IMG/VR virus record: IMGVR_UViG_3300034120_001490
Span: 1-57,049 of that record
Length of the DNA: 57,049 nucleotides
Source of the DNA: a virus
Lineage: Duplodnaviria; Caudoviricetes
Reading direction: 5' to 3' (one strand)
Below the pieces are notes generated by a model. The model was not told where the DNA came from and ran no database searches. It saw nothing but the letters and a program-made list of their open reading frames with translations. The position numbers were made by a program, and so were the translations under genes. Positions 21,200-36,600 of the stretch are shown piece after piece. Each line of letters starts with the position of its first letter. Position 1 is the stretch's first letter.

Positions 21200-21250
21200 G
21201 GGTCTCCGTTGCTGATGTACTCTATTCGCACGTGCAACGTATGATTGCAA
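21200..21250 (-). promoter_or_regulatory. Early promoter/operator and leader A
   Basis: Sense: TTGCAA-tcatacg-TTGCA ... ATCAGCAAC GGAGACCC tgac ATG. Confidence 0.75.
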
Positions 21251-21261
21251 CCCCCAAATGC

Positions 21262-21664: not shown

Positions 21665-21721
21665 GGATCTCCTTTTTGTTACTGACATTCGACACATAAG
21701 TTGCACAACTCTAAGTTGCAA
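21665..21721 (-). promoter_or_regulatory. Early promoter/operator and leader B
   Basis: Sense: TTGCAA-cttagag-TTG ... GTCAGTAAC aaaaa GGAGATCC tgac ATG. Confidence 0.7.
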
Positions 21722-22004
21722 TCCCCTCCCGAACTTTTTTTACGATCTCGTCGATGTTCTCAATTGACCGGGCGATGAACACCGGCACGCCGTCGCCGCG
21801 CATGCGCTCGATCTCGCGCTGCTGGTGGCCGCTGAGCCGGTCGTCGTCGGCCTTGATCTCGATGAAGGCGGCGCGCGGCCACTCCCACCAGATGAAGCAG
21901 TCAGGGCAGCCCCGGCGGCCTTCCCAGCGCGCCTTGCGGTACTGGCCGCCGCTCTTCTGCACGACGCGCTTCAGGTGCTCCTGCAGCTTGCCGGCGGGCG
22001 TCAC
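21711..22004 (-). CDS. VRR-NUC domain nuclease
   Basis: G.PD.....FIEIK.....LS..Q motif; lies between polymerase and helicase. Confidence 0.85.
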   Translation of the reverse strand: MTPAGKLQEHLKRVVQKSGGQYRKARWEGRRGCPDCFIWWEWPRAAFIEIKADDDRLSGHQQREIERMRGDGVPVFIARSIENIDEIVKKVREGIAT

Positions 22005-22198: not shown

Positions 22199-24162
22199 CA
22201 GTCCTTGCGGTAACGATACGCCTCGAAGCCGGCGGCGGCAAGCGGCAGGCCGGCCGACCAGCTCGGGTTGGTGGACATGATCGCCGCCAGCCCCTCGCTG
22301 GTGTAGGCCGGCTCGTCCGGCGTCTCGCAGACCAGCTCGTCGTGCACGCGGATGCAGACGCTGTAGCCGGCCTCCTCGGCGCGCAGCATGCCGGACATGA
22401 ACACGTCGCGGGCGATGGCCTGCACGGCGTTCTCGACCAGCTTGCCGCCGTACGTGTCGAGGCGCTCCCACTTGCGGGTGAATTGGTTCATGCCCTCGTA
22501 GGACAGGCTGCCGCTGGCCGACGCCTCCGGGCGCGGGTAGCACAGGTAGCGGCCGCTCGGCAGCTTCATCCGCAGCCACGCGATGCCCTGCCCGTCCGGC
22601 TTCACGTCGAACGTGATCAGGTCGCGCACGGCGAAGCTCTCGCCCATCTTGTTGATGGCTGACCGCGCGGCCGCCTCCATGTCGTACCACAGGTTGCGCG
22701 TGCACGGGTGGGCCTTGCGCCACGCCGAGACGATCTCTTGGATGGCCTCGTCCGTCATCGCGTCGAACACCTTGCCGCCCATCTTGCGGTACGCGCCGAC
22801 GCCGCCCTGATAGCCTCCCGCCAGCTCGGGCACCTTGCCCTGCAGTTGGCGCTCGGCCTTGGTGATGAGGCCCGGATCTTTGCCGAGGATGCGGCCGGCG
22901 GTCACCTTATACAGGTCGTGCCCGTCGCCCCGGTCGTAGGCCTTGAACGCCGTGACCTTCCAGTCCTCGCCGGCCAGCCACGCCAGCACGCGGCCCTCGA
23001 TGTTGGACAGGTCGGCGATGACCAGCTTGGTGCCCTCGGGGGCGACCAGCGCCCCGCGCACGGCGAAGGCGCAGCGCTCGCTGACGTTGTCCCAGATCAG
23101 GTGCTCGCAGTCCGCCTTCATGGCGGCCACGGTCGTCGCCTGCACGTCGTCATCGAACCAGTCGGGGCTGCGCGGCAGGTTCTGCGGCTGGAACAGGCGG
23201 CCGGCGTCACGCCCGGTGCGCGCCGCGCCGCAGAACTGGATCAGGCCGCGCAGGCGGCCGTCCTTGTTCGTGGCGTTGAGCAGCACACTGTACTTAGCCG
23301 GGCTCGTCGCGGCCGCCTGCTGGCGGATCTCCAGCAGCTCGCGCACCTGCGGGTCGAGGTCTCCGTCGAGCAGGTTGCCGAGCGTGGCGCGCGTCAGATC
23401 CTCGGTCTCGAAGCCGTGGGCGTCCTTGAGGTGGTCGAGCAGGCGCTGGCGCTGCGTGGCGGACGTGACGCTGCCGCCGGTCAGATCGGCTGCACGAGTG
23501 GCCAGAGATCGTCCAGCTCGATCGAAAGCTCGTAGAGCTGCTCGTGCAAACTCTCGGTCAACGGCGACACCACGGTCATTAATTCTTTGATCACACTGCC
23601 ACAGGAGCCGCTCACGATCACAATCGTTCCATGATGGCAGTCGTCCAAGTACGCTTCGCATTGCGTCCACATCCAGCCGGGCGTACTCGACGAAGGCGAC
23701 CCACTCGGCGGGATGTGTGTCACGGGTGGCTCTCCGTATCTTGACGTTGCTGGGCCTCGGCTTCGTCAGCAAGTGTATCAGCTTTTTGCCTGCCTTGTCT
23801 TTGGCTTTGTCCTGCGGCACGTGCAGCACGTCGCAGAGCTGGCCCAGAGAGCCGGGCAGGCTGTGCTGCAGGGCCAGCACCATCGTGTCGATGACCTTCT
23901 CCACGGGGATGTGGACGCCCTGCTCGCGCAGGACGGTGCGGTCGAAGTTGCTGTTGTGGATCACGACGCGATCAGACTTGTCGATGATGTTCTGCAGCGC
24001 GTGACGCCAATGCACGAGATCCTGCGTGTCCCAGACCGCAACAGGATCGCTGTCCATCGCCCACGCCACCAGCATCACCTCGGCGTCCTCCGCGTAGCGG
24101 TACGCGCCGTAGGTGATCTTGGTTTCGCAGAATGTTTCGAGATCGAGGTACAGTGTGCTCAT
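22198..24162 (-). CDS. polA: DNA polymerase, family A, with 3'-5' exonuclease domain
   Basis: LDLET ExoI, HNSNFD ExoII, RTGR.AG...QPQNL, ADLSNIEGR motif A, RQ..GK..ELA.GY motif B, VHDE motif C. Confidence 0.95.
   Translation of the reverse strand: MSTLYLDLETFCETKITYGAYRYAEDAEVMLVAWAMDSDPVAVWDTQDLVHWRHALQNIIDKSDRVVIHNSNFDRTVLREQGVHIPVEKVIDTMVLALQHSLPGSLGQLCDVLHVPQDKAKDKAGKKLIHLLTKPRPSNVKIRRATRDTHPAEWVAFVEYARLDVDAMRSVLGRLPSWNDCDRERLLWQCDQRINDRGVAVDREFARAALRAFDRAGRSLATRAADLTGGSVTSATQRQRLLDHLKDAHGFETEDLTRATLGNLLDGDLDPQVRELLEIRQQAAATSPAKYSVLLNATNKDGRLRGLIQFCGAARTGRDAGRLFQPQNLPRSPDWFDDDVQATTVAAMKADCEHLIWDNVSERCAFAVRGALVAPEGTKLVIADLSNIEGRVLAWLAGEDWKVTAFKAYDRGDGHDLYKVTAGRILGKDPGLITKAERQLQGKVPELAGGYQGGVGAYRKMGGKVFDAMTDEAIQEIVSAWRKAHPCTRNLWYDMEAAARSAINKMGESFAVRDLITFDVKPDGQGIAWLRMKLPSGRYLCYPRPEASASGSLSYEGMNQFTRKWERLDTYGGKLVENAVQAIARDVFMSGMLRAEEAGYSVCIRVHDELVCETPDEPAYTSEGLAAIMSTNPSWSAGLPLAAAGFEAYRYRKD
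23481..23723 (-). CDS. Candidate overprinted gene in the +1 frame of the polymerase (63-80 aa)
   Basis: Polymerase third positions turn A/T-rich from ATG 23672 to TGA 23481; GGAGA RBS lies 7 nt before GTG 23723. Confidence 0.55.
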   Translation of the reverse strand: MTHIPPSGSPSSSTPGWMWTQCEAYLDDCHHGTIVIVSGSCGSVIKELMTVVSPLTESLHEQLYELSIELDDLWPLVQPI

Positions 24163-24167
24163 GATGT

Positions 24168-24290
24168 CCTCTGTTCGGGAGAGCCGCGCGCTTCGTGTAT
24201 CAGCAACGCAGGAGACCCCGCACCCACGCGCGGCTCACCAGAACAGAGGCGCGCCTGCCCCGCCAAGGGGGAGAAACAGGGCAGGCGCGC
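24168..24290 (-). ncRNA. Double-hairpin RNA in the polymerase 5' UTR, with loops antisense to early-gene leaders
   Basis: Stem 24168-24190/24227-24249 and 12-bp stem 24249-24260/24279-24290; loop 1 RNA UGGGUGCGGGGUCUCCUGCGUUGCUGAUACA is complementary to ATCAGCAAC/GGAGACCC/CACCCA. Confidence 0.7.
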
Positions 24291-24303
24291 TGGTTCTATA
24301 GAC

Positions 24304-24558
24304 CTACAGGAGATCCATGCCAATAGCCTTTGCGTAGGTCTCGAGCAGGGCGAAGTGCTCGTTCCTATCGTCATTGGCCATCTTGCGGAGACGGACGACC
24401 TCGCGGAGGATCTTGGCATCATACCCACGGGCCTTGGCCTCGGTGTAGATGTCCTTGATGTCGTCCGCGATGCCCTTCTTCTCCGCCTCAAGCGTCTCAA
24501 TGCGCTCGATCAGGAGGCGCAGTTGTTCGCCTGCGCTGTTGTGTCCCTCCTCGCTCAC
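24304..24558 (-). CDS. gapR: GapR/DUF2312-family nucleoid-associated protein
   Basis: QLR..IERIE.LE.EK..IA.DIKDIY.EAK..GYD.K.LR.VV.LRK signature; GTG 24558 overlaps the SSB stop. Confidence 0.88.
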   Translation of the reverse strand: MSEEGHNSAGEQLRLLIERIETLEAEKKGIADDIKDIYTEAKARGYDAKILREVVRLRKMANDDRNEHFALLETYAKAIGMDLL

Positions 24559-27485: not shown

Positions 27486-27545
27486 GGGTCTCTCCTTGGG
27501 GTTGCTGATACATACCCATATGAACTTATCAATCTCGCATTGCAA
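27486..27545 (-). promoter_or_regulatory. Early promoter/operator and leader C
   Basis: Sense: TTGCAA-tgcgaga-TTG ... TGTATCAGCAAC cccaa GGAGAGACCC ac ATG. Confidence 0.75.
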
Positions 27546-27549
27546 GCCC

Positions 27550-29592
27550 TTATTCGTAAAAAATTACAATCCCGTTTTCCATCCGCAGTGGGCCGTCCTT
27601 CTCCTTGCTAAGTGCCTGAATTGCCCGGACAACAGATTGGCGACGGATGTCACGCTTGCCCGGTTCGGGCGGTGGTAAAGTATCGCAAGCCTTGCGGATC
27701 AGATCCTCCGCGCGAATAACTGCATCCGCCGGGAACAGGGTCATCACCTCCAGCAGGTGGGTCTCAAGGCGGCCGCGACGCTTCACGCCCTTCTTGTCTT
27801 CGGGGGCCGCCGCCGGTCGGATATCGACCTCGACCGCGACGCAGCTCGTGATGTCGTCACCATCGTCGTCGAGGCCCAGCAGGACGGTCTCCAGCTTGAA
27901 GCCCCAGCGCAAGCCGTCCTCGCCGTCCTTCATCTTCTCGATCACAATCTCCCGGTCGCCGTTATCGTGGCGCAGCACCTCGATCTGCACGTCGGCGGCC
28001 GCCTTGAGACCCGACCAGCCGCGCGAGCCTTTGCTGAGATCCTTGCCGGCGTGGTGGACGACGAGGTTCATGGCACCGGTGGCGTCGTGCAGCAGGTTGA
28101 TGTTGCCCAGCGCCCGGCCCATGTCTTCGCTGGTGTTTTCGTTCGCGCCCGGCGTCACCTGCGCCAGCGTGTCGGTGATGATCAGATCGACCGGGCCGAG
28201 GTTCTTGATCTCGGCAATCACTTCGGAGATGTCGTCCCCGTCCAGAAAGTTCGGCGCGGCCGTGATGACGTGCAAGCCGTGCAGGCCGTGCAGGTCGAAG
28301 TTGTGGTGCTGGGCGTAGGCCTGAGCGCGCTTGCCCAGACCGGAGCCGCCTTCGGCGGCGATGATCACCACCCGCGCCTTGACCGTGCGCCGGGTGCGCC
28401 ACGCGTTGCCGCGCGCGATCGCGAAGGCGAGGTCGAGGGCGACGAATGTCTTGCCGCTGCCCGACGCACCGAACAGGATGCCCAGCTCGGCCTTGGGCAG
28501 CACGCCCTTGATCAGCCAGCCCATGGGCTCGCGCTGGGTCAGGTCGTAGATCGGCACCGGGCCGAAGCGGCCGAGGCTCTTCGTCGGCAGATCAGCCATG
28601 ATCGCCTCGGCCTTGGCCAGCACCTCCTCGCGGCTGGGTGGCTCGGCTGCGCGGTTGGCCTCCTTGGCCATCTTCATCACCGAGGCCATTGTGACTTGCC
28701 GCCGGTTCGATCCCTTGCGCCGCTCAAAGCTGTCCCACTGGCCGCGCATGGCCTCGGTGCTGACATAGGTGTAGCCGTCCTGCGACCATTCGTCCCACAG
28801 CTCGAAGCCGGTGTCGTCGCCGTCGCACTCGTGGTGCAGGGCCATCCCGACCTTGATCCAGTCGTCCCTCCCCATGTTCGGGTCGAGGCTGTTGACCAGC
28901 TCGGCCATGCGCTCGGGCGTCAGGCCCAGTCGCGGTTCGCGGCCGGCCATGAAGTCGTCGGGGTCAACGACGTTGTTGATGAGGGAGCCGCCGAAGCGGC
29001 GTTCGCACAGGTCGATGACGTGCTGGTCAACCCCAGCCACCGTGTTCCCAAGGCCGATCAGCTCACAGCCGGCCACGATGTTGCCGGTGAAGGTCACAAA
29101 GCCACTGGAGCTGAAGGTCTCAAAGCCGTAGCGGTCGGGCGCTACTTTGCTCTTGTGATTGCCCAGATTGCCCTTCAGGGCGGCGCGAATGCCCTTACCG
29201 CTCGGGCTGAACTCGGCATATGTCCGGGCAATGATGCGCTCGATCTCAGTCGGTATTTCACCGTCCGCCCCGACGCAGTTGTCGAAGTCAAGGAAGGTAT
29301 AGCCAAAATCGGGCAGCGGCGCGAAGCCGACGCCCTCGTAGTTCATGCGCGCGGCCGCGTCGCGCGCTGCGGCAAACGTCGTCAGTCGCTCGCGGTCGAT
29401 CGGCGAGCCCTGTTGGCCGTGCCGGATCGTGCCGTTTGTCCAGTATGGCACTTTGCGGGGCTTGATCTCGTCGGGGTACTGCTCGAAGCGCCAGATAAGC
29501 CAGCCGGGGATCAGCCGCAGCTCCGCCGGCACCTCAACGGCGCGGATTTTGGGCGCAATTGCCCTGACGCTGGCCATGTCGTCCTCGCTCAC
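27550..29592 (-). CDS. Primase-polymerase / PriCT-2 / AAA_25 (RepA-like) helicase fusion
   Basis: W..W......K..KVPY, LDFD, E.SPSG.G primpol motifs; RDDWIKVGMALH; GASGSGKT, DTL, VHH.GK..GSRG.S. Confidence 0.9.
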   Translation of the reverse strand: MSEDDMASVRAIAPKIRAVEVPAELRLIPGWLIWRFEQYPDEIKPRKVPYWTNGTIRHGQQGSPIDRERLTTFAAARDAAARMNYEGVGFAPLPDFGYTFLDFDNCVGADGEIPTEIERIIARTYAEFSPSGKGIRAALKGNLGNHKSKVAPDRYGFETFSSSGFVTFTGNIVAGCELIGLGNTVAGVDQHVIDLCERRFGGSLINNVVDPDDFMAGREPRLGLTPERMAELVNSLDPNMGRDDWIKVGMALHHECDGDDTGFELWDEWSQDGYTYVSTEAMRGQWDSFERRKGSNRRQVTMASVMKMAKEANRAAEPPSREEVLAKAEAIMADLPTKSLGRFGPVPIYDLTQREPMGWLIKGVLPKAELGILFGASGSGKTFVALDLAFAIARGNAWRTRRTVKARVVIIAAEGGSGLGKRAQAYAQHHNFDLHGLHGLHVITAAPNFLDGDDISEVIAEIKNLGPVDLIITDTLAQVTPGANENTSEDMGRALGNINLLHDATGAMNLVVHHAGKDLSKGSRGWSGLKAAADVQIEVLRHDNGDREIVIEKMKDGEDGLRWGFKLETVLLGLDDDGDDITSCVAVEVDIRPAAAPEDKKGVKRRGRLETHLLEVMTLFPADAVIRAEDLIRKACDTLPPPEPGKRDIRRQSVVRAIQALSKEKDGPLRMENGIVIFYE

Positions 29593-31880: not shown

Positions 31881-31937
31881 GGTCTCTCCGTTTGCTGATG
31901 GGCCTGTTGTTGTGGCAGATGCAATCGCCGATTGCAA
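31881..31937 (-). promoter_or_regulatory. Early promoter/operator and leader D
   Basis: Sense: TTGCAA-tcggcga-TTGCA ... ATCAGCAAAC GGAGAGACC gac ATG. Confidence 0.75.
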
Positions 31938-31996
31938 TAGACATTTTTAAGTAACAATTTTTGTGCTAAGGGCGCGAGCGAGCCTTTTTCAAAGGG

Positions 31997-35650: not shown

Positions 35651-35673
35651 TGGGTGTCTCCTTGGTTGCTGAT
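35651..35673 (-). promoter_or_regulatory. Leader E (no promoter box; intercistronic)
   Basis: Sense: ATCAGCAAC caa GGAGACACCCA GTG, directly after the upstream stop. Confidence 0.7.
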
Positions 35674-35900: not shown

Positions 35901-35962
35901 TGGGTGTCTCCGGTTGGTCGTTGCTGATGACCTCTTCTCTCATAACCAACGTGAGGTTGCAA
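35901..35962 (-). promoter_or_regulatory. Early promoter/operator and leader F
   Basis: Sense: TTGCAA-cctcacg-TTG..GAGAAG ... ATCAGCAAC gaccaacc GGAGACACCCA ATG. Confidence 0.75.
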
Positions 35963-35972
35963 TAGCCTAATT

Positions 35973-36232
35973 TGCAGCATTTGCACTTTTTTACATCCCT
36001 CTGCAGCATGCAGCATTAGCAGCATGCTGCGTCGTGCTGCAAATGGTGCAGGTCGGGTAATGCAGCATTTATGCAGCAGCAAGGGGAGACACCCCCTTAG
36101 GGGTGGCCCCCACTGCTGCAAATGCTGCACCGAGCAGATGCTGTGCTGCGCTGCAGATTTCCATGCTGTGCCGGAAGCTGAAGATGCAGCATGATGCGTC
36201 GTGCTGCAGATGCTGCAGCGCCTCGTGCTGCA
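35973..36232. repeat. TGCAGCA/TGCTGCA array around a central palindrome (candidate origin or packaging site)
   Basis: 12 exact heptamers counted; inverted arms 36061-36079/36113-36129; 33-bp direct repeats at 36019 and 36186. Confidence 0.8.
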
Positions 36233-36248
36233 CCTCGTAAAATATCGC

Positions 36249-36303
36249 TTGCAACGGTGCGTTGCATGTGAGAGAAGCAATTATCAGCAAACGGAGACAC
36301 CCA
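36249..36303 (+). promoter_or_regulatory. Early promoter/operator and leader G (divergent from F)
   Basis: TTGCAA-cggtgcg-TTGCA..GAGAAG ... ATCAGCAAAC GGAGACACCCA ATG. Confidence 0.75.
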
Positions 36304-36600
36304 ATGACCGACCTCGACGCCCTCCTCGCCGAATTCGCCGCCGCCACCAAGATCGTGACGCTCGCGGATCTCACTCCTGCTCAACGCGAAGCTGCCGAGC
36401 GCATCATCGCCAAGACCGCCGGCAATCGCAAAGAGATCAAGACGCTCAAGATCAGCCGCTACAACGGCAACAGCTATGTCACGCTGTACGTCGAAGCTGG
36501 CCTGCCAAACGACGAAAAAACGCTGGCGTCCATCTTCTGCCGCGACACCGCCCACGTTCAGGTCGGCCCTCGCGGCGGCATCACCAACATCGGCCGCTGA
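36304..36600 (+). CDS. Early hypothetical protein
   Basis: ATG 36304 after leader G; GC3 bias; ends ..VGPRGGI. Confidence 0.8.
   Translation: MTDLDALLAEFAAATKIVTLADLTPAQREAAERIIAKTAGNRKEIKTLKISRYNGNSYVTLYVEAGLPNDEKTLASIFCRDTAHVQVGPRGGITNIGR

Follow-up and report, generated by a model that had tools for sequence, protein, structure and literature searches.

Why should the loop of a hairpin lodged between two replication genes of a phage read as the reverse complement of the leaders of its early genes? The question is raised by an IMG/VR virus record (IMGVR_UViG_3300034120_001490; 57 kb, estimated completeness 95%) whose sequence stems from lake-water metagenomes and whose entire 57,049 nucleotides (nt) were analyzed here as the window. 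Between gapR and the DNA polymerase gene, its minus strand carries two adjoining hairpins, T1 and then hairpin 2, and it is the loop of hairpin 2 that mirrors the leaders. Comparison of related loci shows that, as far as sequences can tell, the complementarity of this loop to the 5′ ends and Shine-Dalgarno (SD) sequences of early mRNAs, and to the neighboring start region, is maintained by selection. The comparative support for pairing is strong, and from it we infer an effect on gene expression: hairpin 2 is probably an antisense module embedded in an mRNA, whose loop would pair in trans with early mRNAs, at their 5′ ends and SD sequences, and lower their translation or stability.

Hairpin 2 and the leaders matched by its loop

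The stem of hairpin 2 (CCUCUGUUC-UGGU-GAGCCGCGCG / CGCGCGGCUC-UCCC-GAACAGAGG; coordinates in Table 2) is formed by 23-nt arms that are 91% complementary and 36 nt apart, with mismatches conserved at columns 10 and 13 of its 23 positions; this length (RNase III-type processing hairpins have about 20 bp or more) and the central internal loop fit such substrates. For positions 24150-24310, which comprise T1 and hairpin 2 together, RNAfold gave -84.2 kcal/mol (z = -4.71), and 0/200 shuffles folded as well. An earlier note on this DNA had described one long minus-strand stem between gapR and the polymerase gene, the polymerase SD in its 3′ arm, and a 36-nt loop that is the reverse complement of leader blocks, one leader (C) matching over 12 contiguous nt. 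Stem, SD, and loop were all recovered, with the amendment that the interval holds two hairpins, the first of which (24290-24249) is terminator-like. The SD, AGAGG, ends 5 nt before the AUG within the paired 3′ arm, and sequestration of the next gene's SD in a stable stem is conserved among relatives: the 3′ arm terminates in AGAGG, GAAGG, or GGAGG in 34/34 close variants and likewise in the diverse set described below. A mobile repeat, similar to a miniature inverted-repeat transposable element, was considered and rejected, the arms being single copy within the window.

When reverse complemented, the loop (UGGGUGCGGGGUCUCCUGCGUUGCUGAUACACGAAG) reads TGTATCAGCAAC-GCA-GGAGACCC-CG-CACCCA, and its 12-mer has a single further exact, inverted copy, which the 27483 gene carries in its leader (27501-27512). 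It contains two recognition parts, an anti-SD borne on an inner hairpin and a single-stranded GUUGCUGAU(ACA), which are complementary to the SD and to the first 9 to 13 nt of the early mRNAs. Specifically, the inner hairpin (GCGGG/CCUGC) presents the anti-SD UCUCC (24215-24211) at its tip, whereas the 3′ half of the loop is unpaired in the centroid fold, leaving the anti-leader stretch single stranded. In other lineages the inner hairpin is kept with other sequences, e.g., CGGG/CCCG, as read by eye. Covariation of its variable tip with one particular leader (GGAGCAAAC) was considered and dropped; matches were found in L028, L037/L114, and L045, but not in L086, L107, and L130.

The seven leaders of the window follow a common pattern of AUCAGCAAC, 0 to 8 nt, GGAG(A), 7 to 9 nt, and the start codon. 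All seven starts named in the earlier note are indeed preceded by these blocks; the gene at 36304, however, lies on the plus strand, and the leader of 35650, which is located between cistrons, lacks a promoter. Where the 21660 leader deviates, at three positions, each change gives a G:U pair with the loop, as had been claimed, three transitions out of three being weak evidence by themselves. The window and 24 related loci together yielded 52 unique leaders, 40 of which have TTGCAA at most 62 nt upstream. Their promoters are arranged as an A/T-rich tract, TTGCAA, 17 nt, a weak -10 element (CATAAA or CATATG), and 6 to 7 nt, followed by AUCAGCAAC; at most leaders the motif lies 28 to 32 nt past the -35 hexamer. 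Because this geometry places the transcription start at the A of AUCAGCAAC, the motif presumably represents the 5′ end of early mRNAs made from sigma70-like promoters. A few copies lie between cistrons, directly before start codons and with no promoter (e.g., 35650); occurrence both at sigma70-like start regions and at such promoter-less sites argues that the motif works at the RNA level.

To rank the leaders, duplex energies with the whole loop were computed for 163 SD-preceded starts of open reading frames (ORFs) of at least 50 amino acids (aa), the ranking being restricted to start sites because GC-rich coding windows score as well as leaders do. The seven leaders took ranks 1, 2, 3, 4, 7, 19, and 33.

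Two further features of the early promoters were noted. On the minus strand they form a repeated cassette (27513-27565, 21220-21260, 21690-21730, 31900-31950, and 35930-35975) composed of an A/T-rich tract, G-rich bases, a TTGCAA-N7-TTGCA direct repeat with a 13-bp period, and a weak -10 element; the second TTGCA may be a regulator site and not a part of the promoter. Between the divergent leader-bearing genes 35900 (-) and 36304 (+), positions 35999-36218 contain two 53-nt direct repeats rich in GCAGCATGCTGC-type palindromes, a region that resembles the operator region of a genetic switch.

Covariation of the loop with leaders and start regions

Relatives were collected in several ways. A polymerase protein search returned 25 loci, and wherever these extended over the region, gapR, T1, and hairpin 2 were all found; another 46 hairpin loci came from a pattern scan, whose other matches were attributable to chance. 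A second set, unbiased with respect to the loop, came from a polymerase profile search and comprised 80 loci with 57 to 98% identity. A covariance model built from 34 unique hairpin variants detected the hairpin in 70 of these 80 loci, the polymerase-sense strand always giving the higher score. Among the ten loci with no model match, six have no upstream DNA, L233 carries a divergent hairpin recognized by eye, and L181, L236, and L237 are truly devoid of the hairpin. A GapR homolog is encoded 5′ of the hairpin in 59/59 loci with at least 330 nt of upstream DNA, the distance from the end of gapR to the element being 37 to 81 nt except for one truncated tblastn match.

The stem is supported by compensatory changes. 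In the close set (34 variants), double changes occur at four stem pairs, and the covariation score of 0.116, compared with 0.045 in shuffles, was reached by 0/500 shuffles; in the diverse set (35 hairpins), 16 of the 20 pairs called by RNAalifold stay paired through changes on both sides. When the cells of the 35 diverse hairpins were counted by hand, G:U outnumbered C:A on the mRNA strand by approximately 23 to 6. The loop is conserved even where polymerases share only 57 to 70% identity, whereas the neighboring T1 drifts freely.

For 70 loci sorted by loop core, leaders were counted under a strict rule (motif, 0 to 14 nt, SD, 3 to 11 nt, and start codon, all on the same strand). As shown in Table 1, loops with GUUGCUGAU accompany AUCAGCAAC leaders and loops with GUUGUUGGU accompany ACCAACAAC leaders. 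One locus of the UUGCUUGAU class, L215, has one more ATCAAGCAA copy, located farther from the start codon than the rule allows. The variant leaders have the same kind of promoter upstream and orthologous genes downstream, and the changes mirrored in the loop comprise two substitutions, one 1-nt insertion, and two first-position changes. The bases immediately 5′ of the leaders, in contrast, vary independently of the loop variant, as fits their location outside the RNA. The longest contiguous match between a loop complement and any leader examined is 13 nt. Leaders were looked for in relatives with no hairpin (L181, L236, L237, and Caulobacter phage RW), and none were found there; leaders kept with no complementary loop, the case that the earlier note had named as fatal to its proposal, were not seen in any relative, nor was a locus found with leaders and no hairpin. 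Its core claim, RNA-RNA pairing of loop and leaders, is supported in that loop and leaders covary, by sequence, in at least four lineages; many of the 70 loci are closely related to one another, however, and as evidence they reduce to about four independent events.

Table 1. Leaders of five types counted in loci grouped by the core of the hairpin 2 loop
Loop core	Loci	DNA (kb)	ATCAGCAAC	ACCAACAAC	ATCAAGCAA	GTCAGCAAC	CTCAGCAAC
GUUGCUGAU	45	621	79	0	0	7	8
GUUGUUGGU	14	153	0	11	0	0	0
UUGCUUGAU	4	39	0	0	1	0	0
GUUGCUGAC (L201)	1	18	0	0	0	3	0
GUUGCUGAG (L192)	1	9	0	0	0	0	1
Other loops	5	43	0	0	0	0	0

A quite different loop (..GUGUCCCUCCA..) was noted in the lineage of L232 and L234. Its complement, UGGAGGGACA, is the SD region of another gene's start (L232:5156 and L234:5156), and the anti-SD part of the loop may have targets of its own in this lineage.

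The start region of the next gene provides a second partner. In most relatives, the sequence (G/U)(U/G)UAUCAGC-AUG, located 1 to 3 nt past the 3′ arm, pairs with the same loop stretch; it is present in 29/34 unique close variants. The base adjoining TATCAGC is G in 20/20 sequences with the loop GAUAC and T in 9/9 with the loop GAUAA (unique sequences; 29/29 exact), and both states are found on three otherwise identical hairpin backgrounds (L016 vs L130, L087/L092 vs L027, and L037 vs L086). Transfer of a single block does not explain this covariation because the lower 3′ arm separates the two sites. Divergent lineages have other partners: GGAUCAGCA, UCAGCAACGA, AGAGCAAC, UGUCAGCAAC, which covers the start codon, and UGGGACAACC, which pairs elsewhere in the loop. 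The pairing of GGGACAACC with GGUUGUCCC is an example of how unlike the sequences can be. Loop-downstream runs of at least 7 nt occur in 25/51 unique hairpins, the mean in shuffled tails being approximately 4.3 nt. An H-type pseudoknot in cis between the loop and the downstream spacer was rejected by geometric reasoning, given the 4- to 6-nt linker to the 3′ arm of the 23-bp stem. Throughout the alignments, positions facing many targets are frozen and positions facing a single target drift with compensation, as should be the case if one loop pairs with every target.

Table 2. Positions in the window of the hairpins, leader motifs, and adjoining genes
Feature	Position	Strand	Remarks
gapR, 83 aa	24304..24555	-	Pfam GapR_DNA-bd, E = 6.7e-31; stop 24304-24306
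Hairpin T1	24249..24290	-	GC-rich, terminator-like; U-rich 5′ arm of hairpin 2 follows directly
Hairpin 2, 5′ arm (S1a), CCUCUGUUCUGGUGAGCCGCGCG	24227..24249	-	From fold and covariation
Hairpin 2, loop, 36 nt	24191..24226	-	Small inner hairpin, then single-stranded stretch
Anti-leader core GUUGCUGAUACA	24196..24207	-	Complement of (UGU)AUCAGCAAC; exact inverted 12-mer
Hairpin 2, 3′ arm (S1b)	24168..24190	-	Contains polymerase SD AGAGG (24172-24168)
DNA polymerase gene, 654 aa	22198..24162	-	ATG at 24162; gene 3′ of hairpin 2 in the window
Leader motif, 21195 gene	21208..21216	-	Shared leader blocks
Leader motif variant GUCAGUAAC, 21660 gene	21678..21686	-	Three differences (see text)
Leader motif AUCAGCAAC, 27483 gene	27501..27509	-	First gene of replication operon; promoter TTGCAA-N17-CATATG upstream
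Leader motif variant AUCAGCAAA, 31877 gene	31891..31899	-	Shared leader blocks
Leader motif, 35650 gene	35665..35673	-	Overlaps upstream stop codon; intercistronic, no promoter
Leader motif, 35900 gene	35920..35928	-	Shared leader blocks
Leader motif variant AUCAGCAAA, divergent gene starting at 36304	36283..36291	+	mRNA carries motif

Proposed mechanism and competing explanations

How such pairing might act can be outlined as follows. Hairpin 2 is a structured element of the transcript that would read through T1 after gapR; its stem buries the SD of the following gene, and its loop would base pair in trans with early translation initiation regions, which would amount to early shut-off or feedback by an RNA. 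In its active form the element is probably the stable hairpin, excised from the mRNA. Given the conserved central mismatches of the 23-bp stem, RNase III is the obvious candidate for the excision, and cleavage there would at once make the downstream gene's SD accessible. The earlier note had regarded the element as belonging to the polymerase; this did not hold, since in many relatives another gene stands between hairpin and polymerase and uses the SD held in the stem. To judge from these sequences, the hairpin is not polymerase specific and hides the SD of whichever gene follows. In class-A relatives this SD lies within the 3′ arm, and in the divergent lineages L233/L235 and L214/L218 the spacing suggests a working SD in the tail just past it. 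More tentatively, cutting the hairpin out might both turn on the polymerase gene, or the gene found in its place, and set free an RNA by which the entire early regulon is silenced; such an RNA-only switch from the early to the replication phase, with early mRNAs tagged by a common 5′ end and tag and reader coevolving like lock and key with naturally orthogonal variants, is possible, although we would not lean on it.

Several observations count against an antisense action of the loop on early mRNAs. Since hairpin 2 follows a terminator-like hairpin, it may be less abundant than the mRNAs proposed as its targets. Within a given loop class the core motif does not vary, so that the leader covariation rests on about four lineage events, and a repeated motif covarying with an inverted copy would also arise from one DNA-binding protein changing its specificity, or from gene conversion. 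The conserved central C-A mismatch of the stem is a G:U pair on the opposite strand. The downstream pairing, which cannot form in cis beside the full stem on geometric reasoning (4- to 6-nt link), is absent from the window's own subgroup (GAGGACAUCAUG) and from the GUUGUUGGU lineage, the loop being conserved in both; given that coexistence in cis is impossible, this pairing would form between molecules or after cleavage. The expectation that the leaders would come out on top in interaction rankings holds among the 163 start sites, but not over all genome windows or for the single-stranded part of the loop: genome-wide, the leaders are only in the top 0.1% by duplex energy with the whole loop, where the 27483 leader is 4th and the 21195 leader 14th among nontrivial matches (14,252 windows), and with the single-stranded part alone no leader is in the top 22 windows. 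Finally, the data from RNA libraries consist of assembled contigs of relatives at low depth that carry no transcript ends, processing, or abundance. In five public metatranscriptomes 6 to 9% of sampled words were present, and the four that were mapped to the window gave short contigs of relatives. One 151-nt contig spans 24174-24243 at a depth of 6.9; it gives no strand, ends, or level, and DNA carry-over is possible.

A 638-nt contig from a marine RNA library joins a loop-like region (24224) to the end of the gene for the single-stranded DNA-binding protein (24595), skipping 370 nt that hold gapR and T1. It may come from a relative with another gene order or be an assembly chimera.

The same RNA-RNA pairing could also operate in the reverse direction, with abundant early-mRNA leaders acting on the loop to control the downstream gene; they might direct cleavage of the loop-leader duplex or draw the loop away from the start region. 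The SD of the next gene is buried in every relative, so some activating step is needed, and because the loop also matches the downstream start region (25/51 unique hairpins), leaders and that region would compete. We nevertheless consider this direction unlikely: the leaders match the loop only and therefore cannot invade the stem, pairing would leave the SD buried, and the step proposed in the earlier note, in which early mRNAs open the stem, lacks a basis in the sequence. Moreover, the downstream match is missing from the window and the GUUGUUGGU lineage, yet the loop is kept there.

Alternatively, the motif might be a DNA site, bound by a protein at early promoter starts, of which the loop is an inverted copy; covariation would then reflect a change in specificity, and the stem, as an RNA or terminator feature, would be unconnected with the motif. 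The distance of 28 to 32 nt between the -35 hexamer and the motif at most leaders would suit such a site, as would the joint change of all motif copies and the few loop-complement/leader matches that extend 2 to 4 nt upstream of the presumed start (TGTATCAGCAAC, TTACCAACAACGG, and TCTCAGCAAC). We regard it as unlikely, though the hardest of the rivals to dismiss on these data, in view of the spacing between motif and SD, which varies from 0 to 8 nt while the loop keeps both blocks, and of the promoter-less copies directly before start codons. In addition, the downstream partner slides along the loop and has unrelated sequences in some lineages, which fits base pairing and not a fixed protein site, and this single partner follows the loop variant whereas positions upstream of the leaders ignore it.

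Very unlikely, in our judgment, is a hairpin that acts purely in cis, as an SD mask, RNase III site, or mRNA stabilizer at a mosaic junction, with the loop as the inverted remnant of a leader, held similar through recombination and devoid of any role in trans. Different genes follow the hairpin, which therefore marks a recombination junction, its arms are unique in the window, and all that phage RW has at this position is a short hairpin masking the SD. Gene conversion, however, would have to work on matches of loop complement and leader no longer than the 13 nt given above, which is short, and the loop-leader match has survived substitutions and a 1-nt insertion; conservation of the loop beside a drifting T1 likewise speaks against this reading. 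That the functional transcript is instead the plus strand, as a small RNA or leader starting at the inverted leader copy, can practically be dismissed, even though this strand reads as a full leader with an SD, turns the central C-A mismatch into G:U, and could be terminated by a bidirectional T1: the promoter found ahead of the other leaders has no counterpart here, and in none of the relatives is the SD followed by a start codon, so that a plus-strand small ORF or small RNA was rejected, and both the G:U pairs and, at every locus, the covariance model favor the polymerase-sense strand.

Known systems and genomic context

With the loop taken as an antisense element acting in trans, its nearest counterparts are C4 of phages P1 and P7 and CI of P4, co-directional antisense RNAs located inside their target operon, with loops complementary to ribosome-binding regions. 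C4-type RNA is processed from a longer transcript to a stable species of approximately 70 to 80 nt. Hairpin 2 resembles them in that the loop and six of the seven leaders are on the minus strand and in that target copies lie upstream (27483, the operon's own leader) and, in relatives, just downstream. It differs in matching no Rfam family, in having as targets the 5′ leaders of many promoters and not one anti-repressor operon, and in its position in a replication module after gapR. By analogy, the element would work like P1 C4 or P4 CI while not being a member of that family.

Other systems share single aspects. In T4, the proteins RegA and RegB shut off early mRNAs at initiation regions, GGAG included; here, too, a single factor would control many early mRNAs at the sites where their translation starts, GGAG among them, but this factor would be a base-pairing RNA loop, with no homologous protein involved. 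T7 early mRNA and the lambda N leader contain RNase III processing hairpins, similar to hairpin 2 in their stem of about two turns with a central internal loop, their location between cistrons of a polycistronic mRNA, and the hidden downstream SD, where cleavage could activate translation; unlike hairpin 2, they have no conserved loop complementary to other leaders. The start-associated sequences of cluster K mycobacteriophages and the T4-type PeSL cassettes are regulatory cassettes repeated at gene starts, and as in the leaders described here, numerous start codons have the same short conserved sequence just ahead of them, at the boundaries of mosaic genes. We know of no complementary partner RNA described for either, whereas here such a partner exists and covaries with the motif. 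DicF, a small RNA cut from a prophage polycistronic transcript, is likewise a regulatory RNA released from an mRNA by processing (as proposed for hairpin 2), but it targets host mRNAs and not the phage's own early leaders.

Searches for known relatives of the element were negative. Rfam gave 0 matches at gathering thresholds over the whole window, neither C4 nor the anti-SD small RNAs that the earlier note had suggested being among them, and the C4 family was absent from 24050-24400 even at E values up to 10. The element was not found in 50,697 phage records (cultured phages), and in bacterial and archaeal genomes 24 pattern matches included 0 real hairpins. No description of the motif or element was found in the literature searched, supplementary files lying outside its scope, and none of the matches listed in a text search with the 9-mer concerned phages. 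Because no Rfam family matches, the element is a candidate new RNA family.

If the proposed mechanism is true, hairpin 2 would represent an undescribed class of phage riboregulator, embedded in mRNA and acting on a regulon defined by a shared 5′ leader, and present in many uncultured lake-water phages of the alphaproteobacterial type. It would be an RNA counterpart of protein-mediated early shut-off such as that by T4 RegA/RegB and would explain why many early transcripts begin with conserved nucleotides. The naturally occurring pairs of variants, AUCAGCAAC/GUUGCUGAU, ACCAACAAC/GUUGUUGGU, and AUCAAGCAA/UUGCUUGAU, offer a ready-made test of the mechanism and possibly orthogonal parts for synthetic control.

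T1 is a stable hairpin whose pairing is kept with different sequences in relatives. The tail after it, CUCUGUUCUGGU, contains 6 U in 12 nt, and relatives are richer in U (UUCUUUCU); a simple terminator scan did not list T1 because its loop exceeds 8 nt. This loop (24265-24274) is C-rich, with CUCCCCC in the window and CCCCC or CCACCC in relatives. Subthreshold Rfam matches (6C, CcsR1, and miRNAs) are located over T1 and not hairpin 2 and were set aside as noise; an identity with the anti-SD small RNA CcsR1 was rejected at 17.5 bits (E = 0.068) against a gathering score of 65.3. The T1 loop might nonetheless be a second anti-SD loop.

The replication module occupies the minus strand from 19.6 to 36 kb and encodes an SNF2 helicase, a primase-helicase, a C5 methylase, a DUF2800 exonuclease, a Gp2.5-like single-stranded DNA-binding protein, GapR, and a family A DNA polymerase. 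Inserted genes in relatives (L002:5960-6253, L007:339-983, and L060:416-712) encode a 97- to 100-aa protein ending in ..GRVSEILHGKR, a 211- to 223-aa protein starting with MIKAIETRYKGYRFRSRLEARWA, and a 98-aa protein, and the insertion junction at the start codon is a mosaic hotspot. Pfam gave no match for these genes or for the small leader-preceded ORFs.

The closest cultured relatives are the Caulobacter phages RW, KcrB, RLK, and GB2A, which are distant, with approximately 68% DNA identity over part of the polymerase region. Phage RW (L026:7236-7331) has a gapR-like gene, a T1-like hairpin, and a short SD-masking hairpin, CUGUU-UCCCC-GAACGGAG, but has neither the upper stem nor the anti-leader loop, and the leader motif is missing as well; by comparison, an older hairpin that masked the SD seems to have gained the upper stem and loop by insertion. 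In some relatives, including RW, the polymerase has approximately 960 aa instead of 654 aa (L017:10001-12883 and L026, 4353-7235), and the extra stretch of approximately 300 aa could be an insertion, perhaps an intein or homing element.

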